The notes under the pieces: model-generated
Seen by the model: only the letters and a program-made list of their open reading frames with translations
Told to the model about the DNA's origin: nothing
Databases searched by the model: none
Made by a program: the position numbers and the translations under genes
Shown: positions 9,077-40,070 of the stretch, piece by piece
How the letters are laid out: the number at the start of each line of letters is the position of its first letter
How positions within the stretch are numbered: the first letter of the stretch is position 1
Source: a virus
Lineage: Duplodnaviria > Heunggongvirae > Uroviricota > Caudoviricetes
Virus record (IMG/VR): IMGVR_UViG_2563366974_000010
Length of the DNA: 64,000 nt
Direction: 5' to 3' (one strand)

Positions 9077-9155
9077 CTGAAATCCTCACCTTGTCACAGA
9101 TGCAGAAATGCACCTGCGATTTTCTGCATTCTGCGGTTTCCGTTAAGGAGGCCGT

Positions 9156-9611
9156 ATGACTCTTCCAGTAGACGGCATCAAGCTCCATCGCGGCAACTTC
9201 GCAGCCATCGGTCAGCAGATTCAGCCCTTGCTTGATGCCGGGCAATGCTTTCGCCTTCAGGTTAAGCCGTGGCGCGAGAAGCGCAGCCTGTCGCAGAACG
9301 CTCTCAGCCACATGTGGTACACGGAAATCAGCGAATGCCTCATCACCCGCGGCAAGACCTTCGCTACGCCTGAATGGGTCAAAGACGCGATGAAGCACAC
9401 CTATCTCGGCTACGAAAGCAAGGACAGGGTAGACGTCGTGTCCGGAGAGGTAACCACGGTCCAATCCCTCCGCCATACGTCAGAGCTGGAAACCGGCGAG
9501 ATGTACATCTTCCTGTGCAAAGTCGAAGCCTGGGCGATGAATATTGGATGCCACCTGACCATTCCGCAGAGCTGCGAGTACCAGCAGCTGCGCGATAAGC
9601 AGGAGGCCTGA
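9156..9611 (+). CDS. ninB: NinB-like recombination protein
   Basis: Motif RSLSQNALSHMWYTEIS; position in nin region; AAGGAGG RBS. Confidence 0.65.
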   Translation: MTLPVDGIKLHRGNFAAIGQQIQPLLDAGQCFRLQVKPWREKRSLSQNALSHMWYTEISECLITRGKTFATPEWVKDAMKHTYLGYESKDRVDVVSGEVTTVQSLRHTSELETGEMYIFLCKVEAWAMNIGCHLTIPQSCEYQQLRDKQEA

Positions 9612-17560: not shown

Positions 17561-18910
17561 ATGAATGACAAATTAACTCTCGCCGTCAACCATGCGTTGA
17601 ACGATGCGCGGATGGCTCGCGCCCGTATGGGGCTGATGGCGCCTACAATGGGGCTGGACAACAAGCGCCACTCTGCATGGTGCGAGTATGGATTCCCTGA
17701 GCAGGTAACCTACGAAAACCTTTATGCCCTGTACCGACGCGGTGGTATTGCCCACGGCGCAGTAGAGAAACTGGTGGGCAAGTGCTGGCAGACTAACCCG
17801 GAAATCATCGAGGGTGATCAGGCAGACAAAAAGCGCAAAGAAACCGCCTGGGAGAAAAAGGCCAAACAGGTATTCACCAACCGATTCTGGCGCTCATTCT
17901 CTGAGGCCGATCGCCGTCGTCTGGTGGGCCGTTATGCTGGCATCCTTCTGCACGTCCGCGATGAAAAAGACTGGAACCTTCCGGTAACCAAAGGGCGAGG
18001 TCTTCAGAAAATATCGGTGGCGTGGGCAGGATCGCTTACGGTGAGCGAGTGGGACACTGGCCTGAACTCGAAGACGTACGGCCAGCCTCAGATGTGGCAG
18101 TACGCCGAACGCTTGCCGAATGGTTCAAGTCGCCGCGTCAATATCCACCCCGATCGCGTTTTCATCCTTGGTGATTACTCAGACGATGCTATTGGCTTCC
18201 TTGAGCCAGCTTATAACGCCTTTGTAAGCCTGGAGAAGGTAGAGGGTGGATCCGGCGAGTCATTCCTGAAGAACGCCGCGCGCCAGCTTAATGTCAACTT
18301 TGAGAAGGAAATCGACTTCAACAATCTTGCGTCACTTTATGGCGTGAGCATTGACGAGTTGCAGGATAAGTTTAACGAAGTTGCCGGGGAAATGAACCGT
18401 GGCAACGATGTTTTGATGACAACCCAAGGGGCCACGGTCACACCGCTGGTGACTGCTGTAGCTGATCCTTCAGCGACCTATAACGTCAACCTGCAAACGG
18501 CTGCCGCCGGTGTTGATATCCCGACGCGCATTCTGGTTGGTAATCAGCAGGCCGAGCGCTCCAGCACCGAAGACCAGAAATACTTTAATGCTCGTTGTCA
18601 GTCGCGACGCGTAGACCTCTCTTTCGAAATAGAGGACTTCTGCGACAAGCTTATCGATCTACAAATCGTAGACTCAGTCAGTCAGAAGGCTGTTATCTGG
18701 GATGACCTTAACGAACAGACCGGTACTGAGAAGCTCACTAACGCCAAGACCATGGGCGAAATTAACCAGACCATGCAGGGCAGCGGCGAAGAGCCAGCGT
18801 TCAGCCGTGAAGAGATTCGTACAGCTGCGGGTTATGACAATGACGACGAAGAGCCGTTAGGAGAAGAGGATGGCGACGAACAAGACGAAGCCACCAATTC
18901 TACCGCGTAA
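17561..18910 (+). CDS. Putative portal protein
   Basis: About 450 aa, acidic C-terminus, follows terminase; by position and size. Confidence 0.55.
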   Translation: MNDKLTLAVNHALNDARMARARMGLMAPTMGLDNKRHSAWCEYGFPEQVTYENLYALYRRGGIAHGAVEKLVGKCWQTNPEIIEGDQADKKRKETAWEKKAKQVFTNRFWRSFSEADRRRLVGRYAGILLHVRDEKDWNLPVTKGRGLQKISVAWAGSLTVSEWDTGLNSKTYGQPQMWQYAERLPNGSSRRVNIHPDRVFILGDYSDDAIGFLEPAYNAFVSLEKVEGGSGESFLKNAARQLNVNFEKEIDFNNLASLYGVSIDELQDKFNEVAGEMNRGNDVLMTTQGATVTPLVTAVADPSATYNVNLQTAAAGVDIPTRILVGNQQAERSSTEDQKYFNARCQSRRVDLSFEIEDFCDKLIDLQIVDSVSQKAVIWDDLNEQTGTEKLTNAKTMGEINQTMQGSGEEPAFSREEIRTAAGYDNDDEEPLGEEDGDEQDEATNSTA

Positions 18911-30808: not shown

Positions 30809-31187
30809 TTTTGCTCGGAAGGTGATCGGCGTGCCGTGGGCTAACCGGGCCTGCTCGTTCGATAGGGTCGACTGCTGGGGCTTGTGCGTGCTGTATTACC
30901 GGCACGTTCTCGGCATTGAACTGCACCAGACGCCGGACTACGAAGCCGGTGAGGACTTCTTCACCTGCTATCAAAGTGATGTCGTTTTCTGGCACCCGGT
31001 GGATAAGCCGGTCGAGGGCGGGATATTCGTCGGGTACCGCGGCGCGCAACCGGCGCATGTTGGCCTGGTACTGAACCGGCAGGCGCTGCACTCGCGCGGC
31101 GAGAACGGAAGCGTACGCATGGACTCGTTGCTGGTCATTCAGCGGGCATTCACCAAAGTGGAGTTTTTCGAATATGGCGCTGGTTGA
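30771..31187 (+). CDS. Tail-associated NlpC/P60-type peptidase
   Basis: Candidate catalytic Cys in DCWGLC and His in AHVGL. Confidence 0.55.
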   Translation: MTQRNIPACSTSDFARKVIGVPWANRACSFDRVDCWGLCVLYYRHVLGIELHQTPDYEAGEDFFTCYQSDVVFWHPVDKPVEGGIFVGYRGAQPAHVGLVLNRQALHSRGENGSVRMDSLLVIQRAFTKVEFFEYGAG

Positions 31188-33651
31188 GATATCGAATTTT
31201 CCAGGAACGCCTAAGCTGCGTTGCAGGGTGCCAAACGGCACCCTTTTTTATGACTGGCTGGCGGCCAATGATGGTAACTTTCACCGCGATCTGCTGATCG
31301 TCCGCAACGGCGTAAAGTTGGGCGAAGATGATGAGCTGGCGTTTGAGCTATGCGAACTGGACACCGTCCAGATATTCGACCAGCCGAAGGGCATCATTGG
31401 CGACATTCTCAGCCCGATCTTCAAAGTTGTCGGCGCGGTATTCTCTTTCCTTGCGCCAAAGCCGGCGATCGCCAATACAGGCGGCAACACGATTGACTCG
31501 CCAAACAATAGCCTGACCGGCCAGACGAATACGGCGCGCGTCTACAAAGCAAAACCGGACATCTACGGACAAATCCGTTCGTTCCCGGACCTGATTCAGG
31601 AGTCGCTTTTCGAATACGTGCGCCAGAGCGACACGGATGGCGGCCTGAAGTACGTTACTGAGTGGATGTGCATCGGGATCGGCAAATATGATTACGAGTC
31701 TGTGCGTTATTCAGAGTCCAGCCTAGGAAGTATGGCCGGTGCAGAGTTCCAGTTTTACCAGCCGGGTGAAGTGATCCCTACCATCAACGAAGGCTACGGG
31801 TTCGACGACGTGGATGGCCAGGAAGTGCCCGGGCAAAACGAATCGGATAATTTCCCGATCGAGACTGCTACGGCTACTACGGTTGTGAGCGGAACTTACT
31901 CCGGCGGGCAGATTGCGGTAAAAATTATCAAGCAGGCTGAGTTTGATTACTTCATGGGCCTGGTCCTGCCGCACGCCGTTACTTTTACGATTAACGTCAC
32001 CTACAGCACGCCAACCGGCAACGTAACGCAGGATGTCGATTTCTCCGGCACGCTGATATCGGCTGTCGAAACAAACGACGGCGCGGTGGTTAACCCGGTC
32101 CGGTGGTACACATTCACGATGAGGGATCTAATTGGCCCTCCTGACGTGCCGGCAACGGCGACTATTAACACGACGAAGTTCATCCTTAACGATAACGAAG
32201 CGCTAGTGGTAGGCCCGTTCTTCTCGCCGGTCGAATCTGCCCAGTTATGGCTGCACACTCAGGTGCAGCTGGGCGGCAAAAAGTCCGCTGACTGGAAGGT
32301 CACGATCTGGAAAATTGACGATTACTACAACCAGGTGCCGGGTACTCAGCAGACGTTCACGTATCATCAGGGGACGCCGCACAAATCATCGAGCGAAGTA
32401 TTTTACCGTACCGATAAGCTGACGCCGACCGGCGGTTTCGGCAAGTACGCTATTAACTTCCAGCGCACAGATAACTCGAGTGATGCCTCTATCCTGAAGG
32501 TTGAGGAGATCCACTCGGTCAACGTCAGAACCAACGTCGTGCATCCAACCGATACGCTGGTGCGCGTGAAGGTAAGGGCGACGGAGAACGCCCTGGGCAG
32601 CCGTGACCGCAAGTACAACGCACTGGTGACGCGTCAGACCATCAGTTACAACCTGACGACGCAATCGGTGGATTACACCCTGCGGGCCTCGCGCTCGTTC
32701 GCTGATGCAGTGGCGCATACCTGGCTGATTATGGGCGAGCAGCCGGTAAGTAGCATTGACCTGTACGGGCTGTACTCGATTGCCGAAAGTCTGCCGGATG
32801 AGCGCCTGGGTTACTTCGACTACACGTTTGACGACGAGAACGATTCGTTGGGCGACAGGGTGCAGGCTATCTGCAATGCGGCCTCTGTCATTGCGTACTG
32901 GGACGATGGCGTGCTGACGTTTACTCGCGATCAGAAGGTTGAGTACCCGGCGGCCGTATTCAACCGGGCCAACATGAAGACGGACGAGTACAAAATGACG
33001 TACGAGGCCACTCTTCCTGGCGGTTACGACGGCGTGCAGGTGTCCTATGTTCACCCGACCACGAACAACAAGACGTACATCAACTATCGCGTGCTGAACG
33101 GCGCCATTGTCGAACAGGAAGCGCAGAACCCGAACAAGCTCGAGATTGTCGGCTTCCGTAACGAGTATCAGGCGCGTGAGCGCGCGCTGCGAGAAACCAA
33201 ACGCCTGATTTACTCACGCGTGAATATGAACGCAAAAGTGTTCGAGGACGGCATTATCCAGGTCGGTAGCGTCATTCAGATGCCCGACATCTACGACAGC
33301 AACCAGCAACAGGGTTACATCACCGGGCGCGCCGGTAATAACTTTGATACCAGCGAGCCGATCACGTTTACCGGTTCGATGTATGTGCTGGTGACAGACA
33401 GCCTGGGTAACCCGACGCTGCGCTATCCAGCGGCGGCGCGTGGCGACACGAAGTACGGATTCACCGCGGCTATCCCAAACATTCAGCTCAATATCTGGAA
33501 CGGAGACACTGTGCAGCTCCCGTCGCGCTATCTCATTGCGACAGAGGAGGAACTGGACAGCCAGCTATGGACGGTCAACAGCATCAAACCGAACACAGAT
33601 AACACGGTATCTCTGACAGTCGCGGAATACAGCGACGCCATCTACGAATAA
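31174..33651 (+). CDS. Tail tip / host-specificity protein (J-like)
   Basis: 825 aa, position after tail peptidase. Confidence 0.55.
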   Translation: MALVEISNFPGTPKLRCRVPNGTLFYDWLAANDGNFHRDLLIVRNGVKLGEDDELAFELCELDTVQIFDQPKGIIGDILSPIFKVVGAVFSFLAPKPAIANTGGNTIDSPNNSLTGQTNTARVYKAKPDIYGQIRSFPDLIQESLFEYVRQSDTDGGLKYVTEWMCIGIGKYDYESVRYSESSLGSMAGAEFQFYQPGEVIPTINEGYGFDDVDGQEVPGQNESDNFPIETATATTVVSGTYSGGQIAVKIIKQAEFDYFMGLVLPHAVTFTINVTYSTPTGNVTQDVDFSGTLISAVETNDGAVVNPVRWYTFTMRDLIGPPDVPATATINTTKFILNDNEALVVGPFFSPVESAQLWLHTQVQLGGKKSADWKVTIWKIDDYYNQVPGTQQTFTYHQGTPHKSSSEVFYRTDKLTPTGGFGKYAINFQRTDNSSDASILKVEEIHSVNVRTNVVHPTDTLVRVKVRATENALGSRDRKYNALVTRQTISYNLTTQSVDYTLRASRSFADAVAHTWLIMGEQPVSSIDLYGLYSIAESLPDERLGYFDYTFDDENDSLGDRVQAICNAASVIAYWDDGVLTFTRDQKVEYPAAVFNRANMKTDEYKMTYEATLPGGYDGVQVSYVHPTTNNKTYINYRVLNGAIVEQEAQNPNKLEIVGFRNEYQARERALRETKRLIYSRVNMNAKVFEDGIIQVGSVIQMPDIYDSNQQQGYITGRAGNNFDTSEPITFTGSMYVLVTDSLGNPTLRYPAAARGDTKYGFTAAIPNIQLNIWNGDTVQLPSRYLIATEEELDSQLWTVNSIKPNTDNTVSLTVAEYSDAIYE

Positions 33652-33673
33652 GAACCGTCCCCGACAAACCTAA

Positions 33674-33698
33674 CCCGGCCATCGCGCCGGGTTTTTTT
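33674..33698 (+). terminator. Intrinsic terminator
   Basis: CCCGGC-catcgc-GCCGGG then T7. Confidence 0.65.
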
Positions 33699-33709
33699 AT
33701 GGAATAAAT

Positions 33710-36292
33710 ATGGCCACTACACCTACTAATCTGCCAGTACCTAGCGAATCCCCGCGCGACCTGAAATTTAACGCAGGGAAAATTGATGAGTTCGTGACTT
33801 CATTCGCTCTTAGTTATATTGACCGCTTTGGAGATGAACACTACACGATTGAAGGATTAAGATGGCTTGCACAGCGGGCTATAGCTGAATTTGGATGGAT
33901 ACCTATCGGGACATTTCAGAGCGGCGCTGTTATAACTCTACCAAATCAAATATTAAAAGATGAAAATGATGGAGAATACTATAGATGGGATGGGCCGCTT
34001 CCTAAAATCGTTTCTCCTAATTCAACACCTGATAGTGCCGGGGGAATAGGTAAAGGCAAATGGATAGGTGTAGGCGATGCCAGCTTACGTAGTGCTATTA
34101 CTGAGACAACGAAAAAATACACTACATTTACAGACGCCATCAATTCTACTATTGATCTAGTTATCGGGTGCGTTATTACTGGTGGAAGAGTTTCCATCAA
34201 TGACGGAGGTGGCGGCATATACGTCAGGAACGGAACTGGCACGGCAGGAGATACAGATGGAGGAAGTTACTTTGTTACCCCTGATGGGTCAAGGTTTGAC
34301 TTAGTATCACCTGCAAATATTTCAACTTTTGGCGGCGTTCCTGGGCATGACTACCGTGCTGCTCTTGACGGTATAAAATCGTATGTTTCAACAAGAGATA
34401 AGGTAATTAGAATTAATTCTAAAACTATTGTTAGTATGGTATTTACACCAGAGATTCCTGCTGGATACTGGAATGGATTCATACTTGACGTAGATGATAG
34501 CGTGACAATTAATACCGCAAGCGATGAAGCTGTCAAATCACCATTGGTAAAACTTGTCAGACCTGTAAAATTCTTTTTTACTGGTAATAGCACCAGTTAT
34601 TTATTACGTTCAAGTGTTGGAATTACAAAAGGTGAATATACACCACTTGTTCCAGGTACATTACCAACTCCGCCGATCATAAAAAATGCAAACTACACAG
34701 ATAATAAAACGTTATTTTGTGATATTCAGGATAAAGAAACTCCGGTCTTGACGGTTTTTACCTCTGGATGGTCTTTTCTGTCAGGTGTATGGCCTATGGG
34801 TGTTGTTGCGGATACACCTGCAGCGTCACTGGCTGGGGATGCAGTATCAATTCCAGCCCCTACAGGGAATCTTGTTTTTGCTGCATACAGCAGAGTGAAG
34901 CCGTGCTCTGAATATTTCTTGTCGATGTATGAGGGTGACAACACCGGTGGTCTGCCATGCGTTGTGGTTGAAGCTGAAAGTATGCGTTGGATCTATTACG
35001 AGGATCATTTTGGACATGGTAATTTAATTGAGGGAACAATTGGCGGAGCATACTCTACAAAAAGCATTGCATATGCTGGATCTGATACTCATGCTTCACA
35101 ATGGCTAAAAAACAGTATTGCATCCGTTCGTGTTGATACGCTTAAGTCATTCACTATCCTGGTTAACGGGATAGAGCGAGTTACAATTCGTCAAACCGGG
35201 AGAATCATTGGTCGTGTAGGATTTGGATCACTTGGCGATGGCGGTAAGTATATGTCTGTCTTCTATCCATACATTATCGAAAATCGACAATACCGCTCTG
35301 CAAAACCGATAAATATCGCTGTTGTAGGCGATTCAATCACTGATGCCTCTATGGGAAATGGATGGGTACAGTTCGCGCAACAAGCACTAGAAGGAACTCA
35401 CGGCATTCGCGTTGGACGTATGCAGACAATTGCAATAAATGGGTATGCATCAGGAGATATCGCTAATATATTTAATGTCACATCGTTGGATGATATCGAT
35501 GTAGTGCTTTTCCAAATCGGAGTGAATGATATTCAAAGGCAATCCGGACGAGAGGCATTACGAAATAACGTTAAGCAGATGATGCTGACTGCAAATAACC
35601 TTGGGATTCCCTGCATTGTATCTTTGCCTACACAGTTCTATACCAGAGATCAGAGTGTTACGTTAACCGGGGTTGCTGGTTATGGACAGCCTTCGGCAAA
35701 TTACGAGCTTGGGGCGCTTTACAGGGCGATACTTGCCAGCACAGTAGCTGTTCGTAATACAGAGGTTAATCAGCCGCTTAATGCCCTGAATACTGGTTCT
35801 CTTGACGATCTCGGACCAATCGTAGCCGAATATCTCCTGACAAATCAGGACCCTGTTGTTATGGACAACATTCACCCGACCACATACGGAAGAATTCTTC
35901 TCGGCTTGTCAAATGCCAGAGCTATTGCATCACATATGTTCGGTAGACGTAATGATCCTATAATTAACCACTGGATGCCAGGTGCGTGGGGGGCAAATAA
36001 CTGGTCAGTAACTTCACTGGTTCGTGCTGCTGTAACATCATATCCCGATGGTAAAATTGCATTAACTGGCACTATCGCTAACATCGGAACAGGTATAACC
36101 GCCGACGGTACGACAGTATGCAACCTTCCGTTGAGCATCTCGCCAGTTAGGAAAATGGCATTTTCTGTTACAAAACTTGATGCAAGTGGCCTCCCTATTG
36201 GACAGGGTAATATTGTTATTGATACAAATGGAACTGTTAAAATATACGGATTTCAAACGGGGAATGTGTCACTAGACGGGGTGTTATATTGA
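33710..36292 (+). CDS. Tail fibre / tailspike with SGNH (GDSL) esterase domain
   Basis: Internal blocks VVGDSITDAS (GDS block), FQIGVNDI (GxND), DNIHPT (DxxH); N-terminal fibre-anchor-like region. Confidence 0.65.
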   Translation: MATTPTNLPVPSESPRDLKFNAGKIDEFVTSFALSYIDRFGDEHYTIEGLRWLAQRAIAEFGWIPIGTFQSGAVITLPNQILKDENDGEYYRWDGPLPKIVSPNSTPDSAGGIGKGKWIGVGDASLRSAITETTKKYTTFTDAINSTIDLVIGCVITGGRVSINDGGGGIYVRNGTGTAGDTDGGSYFVTPDGSRFDLVSPANISTFGGVPGHDYRAALDGIKSYVSTRDKVIRINSKTIVSMVFTPEIPAGYWNGFILDVDDSVTINTASDEAVKSPLVKLVRPVKFFFTGNSTSYLLRSSVGITKGEYTPLVPGTLPTPPIIKNANYTDNKTLFCDIQDKETPVLTVFTSGWSFLSGVWPMGVVADTPAASLAGDAVSIPAPTGNLVFAAYSRVKPCSEYFLSMYEGDNTGGLPCVVVEAESMRWIYYEDHFGHGNLIEGTIGGAYSTKSIAYAGSDTHASQWLKNSIASVRVDTLKSFTILVNGIERVTIRQTGRIIGRVGFGSLGDGGKYMSVFYPYIIENRQYRSAKPINIAVVGDSITDASMGNGWVQFAQQALEGTHGIRVGRMQTIAINGYASGDIANIFNVTSLDDIDVVLFQIGVNDIQRQSGREALRNNVKQMMLTANNLGIPCIVSLPTQFYTRDQSVTLTGVAGYGQPSANYELGALYRAILASTVAVRNTEVNQPLNALNTGSLDDLGPIVAEYLLTNQDPVVMDNIHPTTYGRILLGLSNARAIASHMFGRRNDPIINHWMPGAWGANNWSVTSLVRAAVTSYPDGKIALTGTIANIGTGITADGTTVCNLPLSISPVRKMAFSVTKLDASGLPIGQGNIVIDTNGTVKIYGFQTGNVSLDGVLY

Positions 36293-36298
36293 AGGTAA

Positions 36299-36322
36299 GG
36301 GGTGATAAAACACCCCTATTTT
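36299..36322 (+). terminator. Intrinsic terminator after tail fibre gene
   Basis: GGGGTG-ataaaa-CACCCC then TATTTTATT. Confidence 0.55.
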
Positions 36323-36328
36323 ATTGCA

Positions 36329-37414
36329 CTAAATAAAACGCCTTGTAAATTTTGCTATTTTTTTCTCAATCAACGAGTGAACTAAGCACCCTGTAATAAT
36401 GCTAAATAACACATAAAAAGCAAGGTACATAAATACACTGGTATGCAGATGTAGTTCCAGTCGCTCCCACCAGTGCGCAAGCAATGATGTAAATAAGCCA
36501 TGTATGAGGTATATGCAGTACGAAGCATTACCTAAGTAAACTAATATATTCGGAGTCTTTACTTTACCCTCAAGGCTAATTGTTGCCCATACGATGTAAA
36601 AAGAAAACGCTCCCCATATAAGAGGTCTGTGCCATAAGTTCCCTACATACGTAGTTATTAAATATTTTTCAAGGATATAAAATAAAGGCAACGAACAAAT
36701 CAATATAGCAGTAGCAAGTTTGGCGTTAAGAAATATTTTTGATATGTACAGTCTGTACATAAACATACCCAAAGCAAACTCAATCATTACTGGCTGAGAG
36801 ATTACCTCAATTGGAGGGAAATACGCTTTAATAAAATTTGCGGCATGCTCGTTTTTAACTAAAATGTTACAAACGATAACTATTGTCACAAATGAAATTT
36901 CTATTTTCTCTATTTTTGAAACGCCAATTGCAATAAAAATAGCGAAGATAGCATAAAAGAAAAATTCAAACTGAAGAGTCCACCCAACACCTAGTATTGG
37001 TCCCTTATCCCAATGGGTGAACGTTATGCTCCTAAAAAAATACACTAAATCTATTTTATCAGATGGAAACCAAAAAAGTAACGGTCTTGCTGGGGAGGTG
37101 ATTTGGTATGAAACCAAATAAGAGACATAAACAGCACATGCCGTAAGGATAATATATAAAGGAAGTATCCTAACCAATCTTCTTAAAAAGAACTTTGCCG
37201 CTGAAATATTAAATGGCCCATCAGCTTTTTTACCTCCATAAGCAATAAAAGGCATTATAAACCCACTAATTATAAAAAATATATCAACACCTATACCACC
37301 AAGGCCTGACATCCTTATTCCATACATTACAATCTCAGAATGTGCAATGACGACAATCAATGCGGCAAAGAAGCGCAATACCTGTATGTTATAAATTGTT
37401 TGTTTGTTATCCAT
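36329..37414 (-). CDS. Membrane acyltransferase (acyltransferase-3 / OafA-Oac-like)
   Basis: N-terminal VLRFFAALIVVIAHS motif, about 10 TM helices, AT-rich gene. Confidence 0.75.
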   Translation of the reverse strand: MDNKQTIYNIQVLRFFAALIVVIAHSEIVMYGIRMSGLGGIGVDIFFIISGFIMPFIAYGGKKADGPFNISAAKFFLRRLVRILPLYIILTACAVYVSYLVSYQITSPARPLLFWFPSDKIDLVYFFRSITFTHWDKGPILGVGWTLQFEFFFYAIFAIFIAIGVSKIEKIEISFVTIVIVCNILVKNEHAANFIKAYFPPIEVISQPVMIEFALGMFMYRLYISKIFLNAKLATAILICSLPLFYILEKYLITTYVGNLWHRPLIWGAFSFYIVWATISLEGKVKTPNILVYLGNASYCIYLIHGLFTSLLAHWWERLELHLHTSVFMYLAFYVLFSIITGCLVHSLIEKKIAKFTRRFI

Positions 37415-37728
37415 TTTTTAATAATTGGTAATTACGTGCTTAAGGTTCCAAAAGATTCCAGTTATTCACTGGGGCTGTAAGATTTTAACATCAATGCTTG
37501 ATGGTTGACACACTGAATGCAGTTTAATATTTAATAACAACAAAATAATAACCAACTGTAATTAGCATGCTATAAATAACGTTGAAGATTACATCTCATG
37601 CTTCTATATCGCAGTAAAGTCAACATAGATTAACTTCTGCTTTTCCATCCACAACTTTATCTCAAGCTACAACAACAAGTTGCATGCTAACTATTTCACG
37701 GTACTTGATGTGCGCTCTGTAAGAGTAG

Positions 37729-37748: not shown

Positions 37749-37766
37749 TTTATGGGAGTGCAAATC

Positions 37767-38138
37767 ATGGAGTCCCAATTCCCCGCAGCAGATTATGCAG
37801 TAGAGCGTATCTCACTGGACGGCAGGATCATTACAAGCCCAGCGTCGACATATTTGATGCTGGCAGCAGAGACTATCTGGCGCGCAGGCATTATGAAAGA
37901 TGCAATGCTTGTCGTGGACAGCGCTGTACATCCCATTGATGGTTCTATTATCGTATGCCAGTTCAACGGTGAACTTCGTCTTAAGCGCTTGAGGTTAGCT
38001 CCTGCTCGATGCCTTGAAGATCTTAACTATCCAGACCGGCATCAGATGCTGACGTCTGAAACTCTCATTATGGGAGTTGTGACATATATCATCAACGATG
38101 CCCGTAGTGGTGAGTTTGACGACAGCCCGGTGATCTGA
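37767..38138 (+). CDS. UmuD-prime-like protein (truncated UmuD homologue lacking cleavage site)
   Basis: S24-fold C-terminal region with LKRL Lys motif; PAADY motif; no N-terminal extension with Cys-Gly cleavage site; canonical GDSM appears replaced (ETIW). Confidence 0.65.
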
Positions 38139-39406
38139 TGTTTGCCCTGGTTGATGTAAATTCATTTTATGCGAGTTGTGAGACGGTATTCAGGCCTGAC
38201 CTGAAAGGAAAACCGGTTGTTGTGCTGTCGAATAACGATGGCTGCGTGATTGCGCGCTCTGCTGAAGCGAAACTGCTCGGCGTCAAAATGGGTGACCCGT
38301 ACTTCAAACAGAAAGACCTGTTCACGCGGTGCGGAGTTGTCTGCTTCAGCAGCAATTACGAGCTCTATGCGGACATGTCCAACCGGGTGATGACAACGCT
38401 CGAAGAGATGTCGCCGCGCTGCGAAATATACTCAATAGACGAGGCTTTCTGTGACCTTACCGGGGTTCGTAATTGCAGAGTTCTGGAAGACTTTGGACAG
38501 GAACTAAAGGACGCTGTATACCGTAACACGCGGCTTGCTGTCGGCGTTGGGATAGGGCAGACAAAGACACTGGCGAAACTGGCAAATCATGCTGCAAAAC
38601 GATGGCAGCACAAGACAGGTGGAGTTGTTGACCTGTCTAACGTCGAGCGTCAGCGCAAACTGATGGCAGCACTTCCTGTTGATGAGACATGGGGAGTGGG
38701 CCGGCGCATTACCAAAAAGCTCGAGGCTATGGGGATCAAGACGGTTCTCGACCTGGCTGATACTGACATACGATTTATTCGTAAACATTTTAATGTGGTT
38801 TTGGAAAGGACTGTGCGTGAGCTGCGAGGAGAGCAGTGTCTAGAACTGGAAGAGTTTGCACCCGTAAAACAAGAGATTGTATGTAGCCGCTCATTCGGCG
38901 AACGAGTCACTGAATACGATGCAATGCGGCAGGCTATCTGTAGCTACGCGTCGCGAGCAGCGGAGAAGTTGCGTGGAGAGCATCAGTATTGCCGGTTTAT
39001 CTCTGCGTTCGTCAAAACGTCACCATTCGCGCTTAATGAGCCATATTACGGTAACAGCGCATCGGTGAAGTTGCTGACACCGACGCAAGATAGCCGGGAC
39101 ATCATTGCGGCGGCCACTAAGTGCCTTGATGCTATATGGAAAGATGGTCACCGATACCAGAAAGCGGGCGTGATGCTCGGAGACTTCTTCAGTCAGGGCG
39201 TCGCACAACTTAACCTGTTTGATGACAATGCACCTCGCGTCGGAAGTGAGAAGCTGATGGAAGTTCTGGATCAACTCAACACTAAAGGCGGGAGAGGTAC
39301 GCTGTATTTTGCAGGGCAGGGCATCCAGCAGCAGTGGGCGATGAAACGAGAAATGCTTTCGCCGCGGTACACAACAAGATTTTCCGATCTGCTGCGCGTT
39401 AAGTAA
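38138..39406 (+). CDS. umuC: Y-family DNA polymerase UmuC (Pol V catalytic subunit)
   Basis: N-terminus [15 protein letters not shown] and overall UmuC-like sequence. Confidence 0.9.
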
Positions 39407-40070
39407 CGAGTTCAATCAACTCCGGCCCCTGATTTTTCACATTACCAACGGAGCGCGTCACGGCGTGCCAGATAAACTTGTCGGCGGAAACCGCTCCGTC
39501 GGCTGCTATCTCTTCCGCTTCTTTCCCGCCTATATCCTGGCGCATCCACTCACGGGCCGCTTCAGGTGACAGAACAAGCGGCCGTCTGTCGTGAATGTCG
39601 ACCAGTCCTTTATCAGCTGCAGATGTCACTATCAGAAAGCCCTCAGCGTCATCACCGCGCTCAAATGGCGTGCTGCCTATAGCTGCCATAAAGATTGGCT
39701 GACCGTCGGCACGGTGAATGAAGTAGGGCTGTTTCTTGTCGCCTTCCTTTTTCCATTCGAACCAGCCATCAGCAAAGCAGATCGCCCGGCCATGTTGCCA
39801 GAGAGGTTTGAACATTCGGCTGGTGGCTGCGGTTTCGACGCGTGAGTTAATCAGCGGCGGTTTATCCCACCACCCGGGAGCGTATCCCCAGAACACTGGA
39901 TCGAGATGCAGCTGCTCGTCGCGTTCGCTCAGCAGCAGAACTTTGGTGCCTGGCGCAACGTTGTAGCGTCCAATCGGCTCCGGGTCGTACGCGATGTCGC
40001 GATCGGCTTCATCCGCCAGGTAAGCCAGGTATTCTTCACGCGTTTGAGCTTGTGCAAAACGTCCACACAT
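39399..40070 (-). CDS. yedK: SOS-response-associated peptidase (SRAP / YedK-like)
   Basis: Starts MCGRF (catalytic Cys2 hallmark of SRAP/HMCES proteins); about 223 aa. Confidence 0.85.

Follow-up and report, generated by a model that had tools for sequence, protein, structure and literature searches.

Comparison with known phage systems

Tailspikes with esterase activity (phages G7C and PP99, prophage proteins of Klebsiella) and seroconversion by membrane acyltransferases of the acyltransferase-3 (AT3) family are already known, each separately. A stretch of 64,000 nucleotides (nt) of DNA from a Caudoviricetes virus (IMG/VR record IMGVR_UViG_2563366974_000010), referred to here as the window, has a gene of each type side by side. 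The first is a tailspike gene of 860 amino acids (aa) with a predicted SGNH/GDSL esterase domain (positions 33710–36292, + strand). The second encodes an AT3-only membrane acyltransferase of 361 aa (36329–37414, − strand), and the two open reading frames are convergent with a gap of 36 nt. The domains, motifs and fold of this pair, its conserved synteny, its serotype restriction and its modular exchange were computed. The reading favoured here, with a little more confidence than doubt, is a two-gene receptor cassette specific for the S88 variant of the Escherichia coli O45 O-antigen, abbreviated O45(S88). The esterase spike would act on an acetyl group made by the host, and the AT3 protein would add a blocking acyl group in the lysogen.

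The spike of phage G7C, gp63.1 (PDB 4QNL), is an SGNH esterase that removes acetyl from the 4s O-antigen of E. coli. It is 859 aa in length and has an N-proximal domain of the Tail_spike_N type that is homologous to that of the window spike. As with gp63.1, a depolymerase beta-helix was not detected in the window spike. The O-antigen on which G7C acts is acetylated by a host gene, and the same may hold for the host of the window phage. G7C, a virulent N4-like podovirus, has no conversion gene. The window spike, whose activity is predicted, belongs to a temperate siphovirus and has an adjacent AT3 gene. Only aa 59–132 of the window spike align to gp63.1, by single-sequence or by profile comparison, and the catalytic part is unmatched. 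Because the match is limited to the N-proximal domain, the window spike is an independent SGNH lineage outside the gp63.1 family; it may work like gp63.1 without belonging to its sequence family.

Protein gp55 of Pectobacterium phage PP99 deacetylates an O-antigen with O-acetylated 6-deoxytalose (6dTal), the sugar that is also deduced for the O45(S88) host. A search of the phage collection gave no sequence relationship between the spike of this lytic podovirus and the window spike. Among temperate phages, Klebsiella prophages are known to have SGNH esterases as receptor-binding proteins (PLoS Biol 2026, PMC13123978); these proteins track the surface-polysaccharide type, and prophage acetyltransferases are noted in that study as well. 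The Klebsiella proteins act on capsule K-types, whereas the window spike is associated with an E. coli O-antigen and has a conserved adjacency to an acyltransferase gene. A fixed spike-acyltransferase cassette is not described in the available part of PMC13123978.

The arrangement of the two genes is like that of the Sf6 tailspike with oac and the BTP1 tailspike with oafB (gtrC-BTP1), in that the AT3 gene is just downstream of the spike gene and near the prophage end. Sf6 oac and BTP1 oafB are expressed in the lysogen, and acetylation by their products blocks the phage's own spike (PMC9558356). The window AT3 protein is AT3-only, as is Oac. The Sf6 and BTP1 spikes are endorhamnosidases (depolymerases), whereas the window spike is a predicted acetyl esterase, and the reactions of spike and modification enzyme would be formally opposite. 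The window AT3 protein is not close to phage Oac proteins; seven weak matches were found in 50,697 phage records.

The window AT3 protein has the AT3 motifs (R/K-x10-H, FFxISG and RxxR) in common with AT3-SGNH proteins of the OafA/OafB type. In prophages of Enterobacter and Pseudomonas, AT3 relatives of 36–39% identity share an operon with a separate gene for an SGNH partner, a split OafA-like arrangement. Unlike OafA and OafB, the window AT3 protein appears to lack an 11th helix and is without an SGNH partner, either fused or adjacent on the same strand. The only SGNH domain nearby is that of the virion spike, a protein without a signal peptide and dissimilar to the partner proteins. Two ideas on its origin and role were rejected: that the spike SGNH domain was derived from the SGNH partner genes of related AT3 operons (zero sequence similarity), and that the spike is the periplasmic partner of AT3 (its gene belongs to the late operon, and the product is a virion protein without a signal peptide). 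A three-gene cassette is common to Enterobacter asburiae (locus L011, 6001–9706) and Pseudomonas fluorescens (locus L023, 6001–9912). The identities between the two are 46% for AT3, 37% for the SGNH protein of ~375 aa in the same operon and 37% for the C-terminal part of the convergent fibre. This cassette looks like a split AT3-SGNH system of the OafA/OafB type that travels with a cognate fibre.

Conservation and exchange of the gene pair

The spike body (aa ~130–860) with a convergent AT3 gene 30–36 nt downstream recurs across bacterial genera and phage chassis. The pair is present in E. coli prophages at argW (L73, M37H, 2452, EC21Z-063 and further assemblies), in Proteus mirabilis, and in both a siphoviral and a P22-like prophage of Morganella; in the latter the order is spike, AT3, int, as in Sf6. 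In Buttiauxella, an AT3 gene of the window type (85% identical) is beside a frameshift-broken copy of the spike. A different fibre set next to the Buttiauxella AT3 gene had been considered and was rejected, as tblastn shows a frameshifted version of the window spike. The AT3 proteins of the argW prophages are designated clade A and that of the window clade B. Among clade-A pairs the AT3 identity tracks the spike identity: the paired values are 91% and 81–84% for L73 compared with Morganella, and 74% and 69% for L73 compared with Proteus. Clade-A AT3 is present in four and clade-B AT3 in two of 5426 complete E. coli genomes, always beside the spike. The pairing of spike and AT3 is not a product of chance.

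Sequence comparison indicates that the window locus is a recombinant. The SGNH core of the spike (35159–35900) is 94–99% identical at the nt level to the spikes of the argW-site prophages, in contrast to the AT3 genes of window and argW prophages, which have 54–63% nt and 55% protein identity. The window AT3 gene is closer to the Buttiauxella gene (78–85% identity). Region 33600–37700 of the window is 100% identical to E. coli strains 20A24 and XJ5.2. The TipJ gene upstream is 100% identical in 20A24 only; in XJ5.2 the identity is 100% across spike and AT3 and 85.7% in TipJ, a sharp mosaic boundary. The different identities of SGNH core and AT3, together with the divergence of TipJ in XJ5.2, therefore point to recombination breakpoints at both ends of the spike.

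Inactivated copies of the cassette are frequent. One Proteus strain has a frameshift in AT3, and in Buttiauxella the spike is spread over three frames (loci L006, 7622–8708, and L014, 7133–9770). Insertion sequences (IS) are found in modification genes, namely IS5 in XJ55, IS1 at a locus encoding an MBOAT-family protein and IS3 in O22:H8 strain 154, and an IS3 element is inserted within the spike of HL15.

Restriction to one O-serotype

The O-antigen cluster of strain 20A24 has the wzx gene of the 'S88 variant O45'. This cluster is present in 37 of the 5426 complete E. coli genomes, and all seven genomes with the spike body are among these 37. The hypergeometric probability of this overlap is 4e-16, and it is 3e-7 when three prophage types at three integration sites are counted as independent. 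The same restriction is seen with the acyltransferase, where the genomes having AT3 of clade A or clade B are all O45(S88-variant) (6/6).

The O45(S88) cluster contains rfbB, rfbC and rfbA without rfbD, a short-chain dehydrogenase/reductase (SDR) gene and a hexapeptide-repeat (Hexapep) acetyltransferase gene. From this gene content an O-acetylated 6-deoxy-L-talose unit is expected. The reference O45 O-antigen is FucNAc-6dTal2Ac-Glc (PMC12093740), and 6dTal is the sugar that the PP99 spike deacetylates (PMC6989608). A host-made acetyl substrate for the window spike is plausible. Since the host cluster encodes its own acetyltransferase, uninfected hosts would already present an acetylated substrate.

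Properties of the tailspike

The tailspike gene is the last gene of the late (tail) operon and is directly 3' of the TipJ gene. The protein has Pfam matches to Tail_spike_N (aa 68–123, E = 8e-17) and Lipase_GDSL_2 (PF13472; aa 538–689, E = 7e-9). The latter has a score of 36.9 bits, above the curated threshold of 32.9 bits. The protein also matches phrog_13362 at 1240 bits, and the PGAP name of the protein in strain 20A24 is 'GDSL-type esterase/lipase family protein'. The original prediction, which was made from the sequence without database searches, had proposed an SGNH esterase domain on the strength of GDS, GxND and DxxH blocks in an 860-aa protein. The domain search bears this out: both reading frames are where they had been placed, and the blocks occur once each as GDSI (aa 540–543), GVND (604–607) and DNIH (719–722), with G578 representing block II. 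Residues S542, G578, N606, D719 and H722 are invariant in an alignment of 37 sequences that extends down to 23–32% identity. The combination of a virion-attachment module and an SGNH domain at the tail-spike position is the architecture of a deacetylating tailspike.

The virion-attachment module is N-terminal (aa 1–130; 33710–34099, + strand) and is exchangeable between chassis. Residues 1–133 match PDB 9occ_G, 'tail protein gp13' (E = 7e-45), and also the N-domains of the CBA120 tailspike proteins and of G7C gp63.1. In Morganella a P22 Head_binding domain takes the place of the module, and in a T7-like phage a T7 tail-fibre N-domain does so.

An AlphaFold2 (AF2) model based on the 37-sequence alignment has a mean predicted local distance difference test (pLDDT) value of 69.7, with values of 75–90 over aa 534–745. 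It displays a typical SGNH domain between a beta-sandwich on the N-terminal side and a beta domain on the C-terminal side. The SGNH/GDSL domain (aa 534–745) corresponds to 35309–35944 (+ strand), with Ser542 at 35333–35335 and His722 at 35873–35875. The beta-sandwich (aa ~370–525; 34817–35284, + strand) is encoded 5' of the esterase domain and has pLDDT values of 75–87. The C-terminal beta domain (aa 750–860; 35957–36289, + strand; pLDDT 70–88) is kept in all close homologues. Foldseek gave two-domain matches to YxiM (2o14), SsfX3 (3skv) and a PVA esterase (9kr0). The beta-sandwich domain probably binds carbohydrate.

Relatives of the spike are few among isolated phages. The region has no near-identical match in the 50,697 phage records, and distant relatives (25–30%) of the catalytic half of the spike are present in only five isolated phages. 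A scan of a contig collection made up of species representatives only gave no relative of the spike body. NCBIfam has no model for the spike or for AT3.

Properties of the acyltransferase gene

The acyltransferase matches Acyl_transf_3 (PF01757; aa 7–342 of 361, E = 1e-25, 91 bits compared with a cut-off of 31) and PHROG 3333 'O-acetyltransferase' (phrog_3333, E = 7e-63). Here too the original prediction holds, as it had described an AT-rich acyltransferase-3 gene on the opposite strand, convergent with and immediately downstream of the spike. With 34.5% G+C, AT3 is poorer in these bases than the spike (43%), TipJ (55%) and the window as a whole (51%).

The motifs R/K-x10-H in transmembrane helix 1, FFxISG in transmembrane helix 2 and RxxR define the AT3 family and are essential in OafA, Oac and OafB (PMC7448272). 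They are represented by R14-x10-H25, FFIISG (aa 46–51) and R79LVR82, all invariant in an alignment of 21 sequences. A crude hydropathy scan shows 11 partly overlapping peaks, or roughly 7–8 distinct segments; AT3 proteins are expected to have about 10 transmembrane helices. As a protein of 361 aa without a second domain, it is consistent with an AT3-only architecture.

Between the convergent stop codons is a terminator-like, G+C-rich hairpin, AGGGGTG-ATAAAA-CACCCCT, followed by a T run (36298–36317). A sigma-70 promoter-like site, GTGTCA-18-TAAAAT with an extended TG (37482–37511, − strand), is a consensus match only; it is ~70 nt upstream of the AT3 start, inside an intergenic region of 337 nt with 33% GC. 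A Dam/OxyR phase-variation signature was sought upstream of AT3, and a GATC site is absent there. Because of the opposite strand, the promoter-like site, the hairpin terminator and the low GC content, the AT3 gene looks like a separately expressed moron or lysogenic-conversion gene. It is an accessory gene of atypical composition beside the spike and near the prophage end, and this is the arrangement of a seroconversion module.

The gene position after the spike in related phages

The TipJ chassis was found in 29 E. coli genomes. A survey of the position after the spike covered 20A24-type, L73-type, XJ55, M10/GB089/O22:H8-154, EF7-18-51, 30EVA1, FDAARGOS_1277, strain 53 and HL15 prophages, as well as the related P0137 prophage that was reached via protein look-up. 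An AT3 gene is behind the SGNH spike of the window type (20A24-type and L73-type) and behind the IS3-split SGNH spike of HL15. M10, GB089 and O22:H8-154 have an SGNH-like spike of 665 aa with a sub-threshold GDSL match, and in these a gene for a 334-aa protein lies between two AT3 genes. XJ55 has an SGNH-like spike with a weak GDSL match, followed by AT3 plus a separate SGNH protein. In the P0137 prophage, an SGNH spike of 791 aa is followed by an MBOAT gene and a membrane-anchored partner. Spikes of other types have AT3 (GDPD spike, EF7-18-51) or an acyltransferase (beta-helix spike, strain 53) in this position, and two unclassified spikes have gtrABC (30EVA1) or GNAT plus a CE4 polysaccharide deacetylase (FDAARGOS_1277). 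The presence of acyltransferases beside GDPD and beta-helix spikes, and of gtrABC beside another spike, therefore makes this position look like a general slot for receptor modification.

Two of these loci have features of their own. In FDAARGOS_1277 (locus L034, 11178–13981) the GNAT N-acetyltransferase and the CE4 deacetylase are encoded on the strand of the spike, and they are possibly another pair that adds and removes acetyl, of a different enzyme class. In E. coli CM127659 (locus L025, 7411–10547) a membrane-anchored protein of 359 aa (no Pfam match), IS1 and MBOAT are found 3' of the 791-aa SGNH spike. The 359-aa protein and MBOAT may represent an O-acylation pair for lysogenic conversion, similar to AlgI/AlgJ or PatA/PatB.

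The spike is also found without the acyltransferase. A spike body of 90% identity is present on a virulent T7-like contig (T7 gp13–16, holin, terminase) that has no acyltransferase gene. The YZLc4-1 prophage has a 982-aa version of the spike followed by lysis genes, with no adjacent acyltransferase, and distant spike homologues on podovirus-like contigs are likewise without one.

Proposed function and alternative explanations

The best reading of the cassette is seroconversion in the manner of Sf6 and BTP1, but with a deacetylase as the spike. In such a scheme the spike would be anchored at the tail tip via its exchangeable N-terminal module and would bind the O-antigen. Its SGNH domain would strip an O-acetyl group installed by the host, as do the deacetylating spikes of G7C and PP99. 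This acetyl group is probably on 6-deoxy-L-talose, and the enzyme that adds it is probably the hexapeptide-repeat acetyltransferase encoded in the O-antigen cluster. The AT3 gene would serve for lysogenic conversion: the prophage would express it from a promoter of its own, and the AT3 protein would put a different acyl group on the lysogen O-antigen that spoils recognition by the spike. The lysogen O-antigen would then be a poor ligand or substrate, with less superinfection and less loss of progeny on lysogen debris. It would also be less stripped by spontaneously released phage, as is the case with Sf6 Oac and BTP1 OafB. Spike and AT3 would be kept adjacent and exchanged together because both must recognise the same glycan. 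We infer both enzyme activities, the sugar positions and the blocking effect from the features described above and from these precedents.

Several points weigh against this seroconversion scheme. The esterase spike might hydrolyse an acetyl group added by AT3, which would make the block ineffective. The specificity of the window AT3 protein (clade B) may differ, since it is 55% identical to the clade-A AT3 that adjoins a near-identical SGNH core. As Proteus, Morganella and Buttiauxella also have the pair, some glycan would have to be common to these genera. The presence of O-acetylated 6dTal in the O45(S88-variant) O-antigen is deduced from gene content and the reference O45 structure, and the spike-bearing E. 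coli genomes are phylogenetically non-independent. An acyltransferase is beside the SGNH spikes in 6/6 lineages compared with 2/4 for other spikes; this enrichment is suggestive, with a P value of 0.13 over 10 lineages that is not significant.

Another explanation, close to the original prediction, is that the acetyl group recognised and hydrolysed by the spike is the one put there by AT3. In that case the prophage would create or top up its own receptor mark, or the esterase would have evolved to erase the acetyl seroconversion of related prophages. Enzymes that add and remove acetyl are repeatedly found in tight adjacency, in several genera and on several chassis. All six TipJ-prophage lineages with SGNH or SGNH-like spikes have a membrane acyltransferase system behind the spike, and these systems are partly non-homologous (AT3, AT3 plus SGNH, MBOAT plus partner). 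However, a temperate phage must infect non-lysogens, which are hosts without AT3, and the host O-antigen cluster has an acetyltransferase of its own. No acyltransferase adjoins the spike body of the T7-like virulent phage or that of the YZLc4-1 prophage, and acyltransferases are also found behind the GDPD and beta-helix spikes of the general slot. In addition, SGNH cores of 98–99% identity adjoin AT3 genes of 55% identity, and no precedent was found in the literature searched. This explanation is unlikely, and it is slightly more doubtful still that esterase and AT3 form a true write/erase pair with a single hydroxyl of the O45(S88) O-antigen as their common target. If they did, the prophage could renew the mark for its own virions, or the spike could counter the acetyl seroconversion of rival prophages; esterase spikes and three unrelated acylation systems would then be part of an acetyl-centred arms race. 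Of the receptor-modification pairing as originally predicted, the linkage of spike and AT3 stands, with synteny across genera and a single O-serotype in E. coli, whereas removal by the spike of an acetyl group added by the same prophage is not upheld. That AT3 blocks the spike is more likely than that it makes the substrate of the spike.

It is also improbable that the two genes have no functional link, with AT3 as a generic moron that occupies the usual accessory slot and acts on a substrate other than the spike receptor. The candidate targets would be enterobacterial common antigen, osmoregulated glucans, capsule or peptidoglycan, or AT3 might have a role in host fitness and not in phage exclusion. 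AT3 proteins do have many substrates (PMC9558356), and no NCBIfam model gives this one a name. A related AT3 (48–61% identical) adjoins a Mu-type fibre that has no SGNH domain, and the window AT3 is of a different clade from that usually paired with the spike. Against this, clade-A and clade-B AT3 genes in E. coli are never found away from the spike and never outside O45(S88) hosts. Spike and AT3 move together onto a P22-like chassis, and a sister prophage has gtrABC, a known O-antigen modifier, in the same slot.

Least probable is that the SGNH domain does not work as an O-antigen deacetylase and may be a catalytically silent binding module or an enzyme for another polymer such as capsule, the O45(S88) association being due to shared ancestry of the host strains: the seven host genomes may be related (L73, 2452 and EC21Z-063 have prophage and O-antigen cluster at near-identical coordinates) and the AF2 model is partly of low confidence, yet the catalytic residues (Ser, Gly, Asn, Asp, His) do not vary even among homologues of 23–32% identity, three prophage types at three integration sites are all in O45(S88) hosts, and the SGNH receptor-binding proteins tested so far (G7C, PP99, Klebsiella prophage proteins) are active esterases.

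Prophage context and neighbouring genes

The window is E. coli chromosomal DNA, and the spike and AT3 genes are located at the right end of a lambdoid siphoviral prophage. The order of this prophage is early genes, nin region, Q and lysis genes, followed by terminase, head and tail genes, tape measure, TipJ, spike and AT3. TipJ, a host-specificity tail protein (31174–33651, + strand; annotation, phrog_469), was the chassis gene for the survey of sister prophages. To the right of AT3 are an S24 peptidase/Y-family polymerase pair, an SRAP gene and the host genes yciB, yciC, ompW and trp.

The pair at 37752–40070 encodes a UmuD-like S24 peptidase (128 aa) and a Y-family DNA polymerase (422 aa; IMS, IMS_C, DUF4113), and a gene for an SRAP/YedK-type SOS-response peptidase is convergent with it. 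Together they represent a phage-borne translesion-synthesis module by the yciB attachment site. In sister prophages the S24 and SRAP genes are kept and the polymerase is often lost. A homologue of the DNA polymerase III theta subunit is encoded at 9082–9336 of the window, and a small theta-like gene is found right after AT3 in Proteus and Morganella prophages (loci L005, L009, L010). A 449-aa protein at ~17561–18910 (locus L001, 3962–5311) has the RefSeq name 'anti-CBASS protein Acb1 family protein'. Its gene is flanked by those of the large terminase and the minor head protein, the place expected for a portal gene, and the name may be a mis-annotation.

Implications

A conserved cassette of esterase spike and AT3 appears to be new, as no description of it was found in the literature searched. 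The same literature has no description of the O45(S88) restriction, of movement between lambdoid and P22-like chassis, of the spike body alone on a T7-like chassis, or of the replacement of AT3 by other acylation systems beside related esterase spikes. A deacetylating spike and O-antigen acetylation, which temperate phages use against phages of their own type, would be united in one small cassette that crosses genera and chassis. It is a concrete example of prophage genes for receptor binding and receptor modification that are exchanged as a unit. The cassette is tied to an O-antigen of clinical relevance, that of the O45:K1:H7 neonatal-meningitis clone S88, and the spike is a possible serotype-specific esterase for typing or phage engineering. 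The locus also represents a clean system for the question of how an acetyl-based block can act against a spike that would itself remove acetyl.

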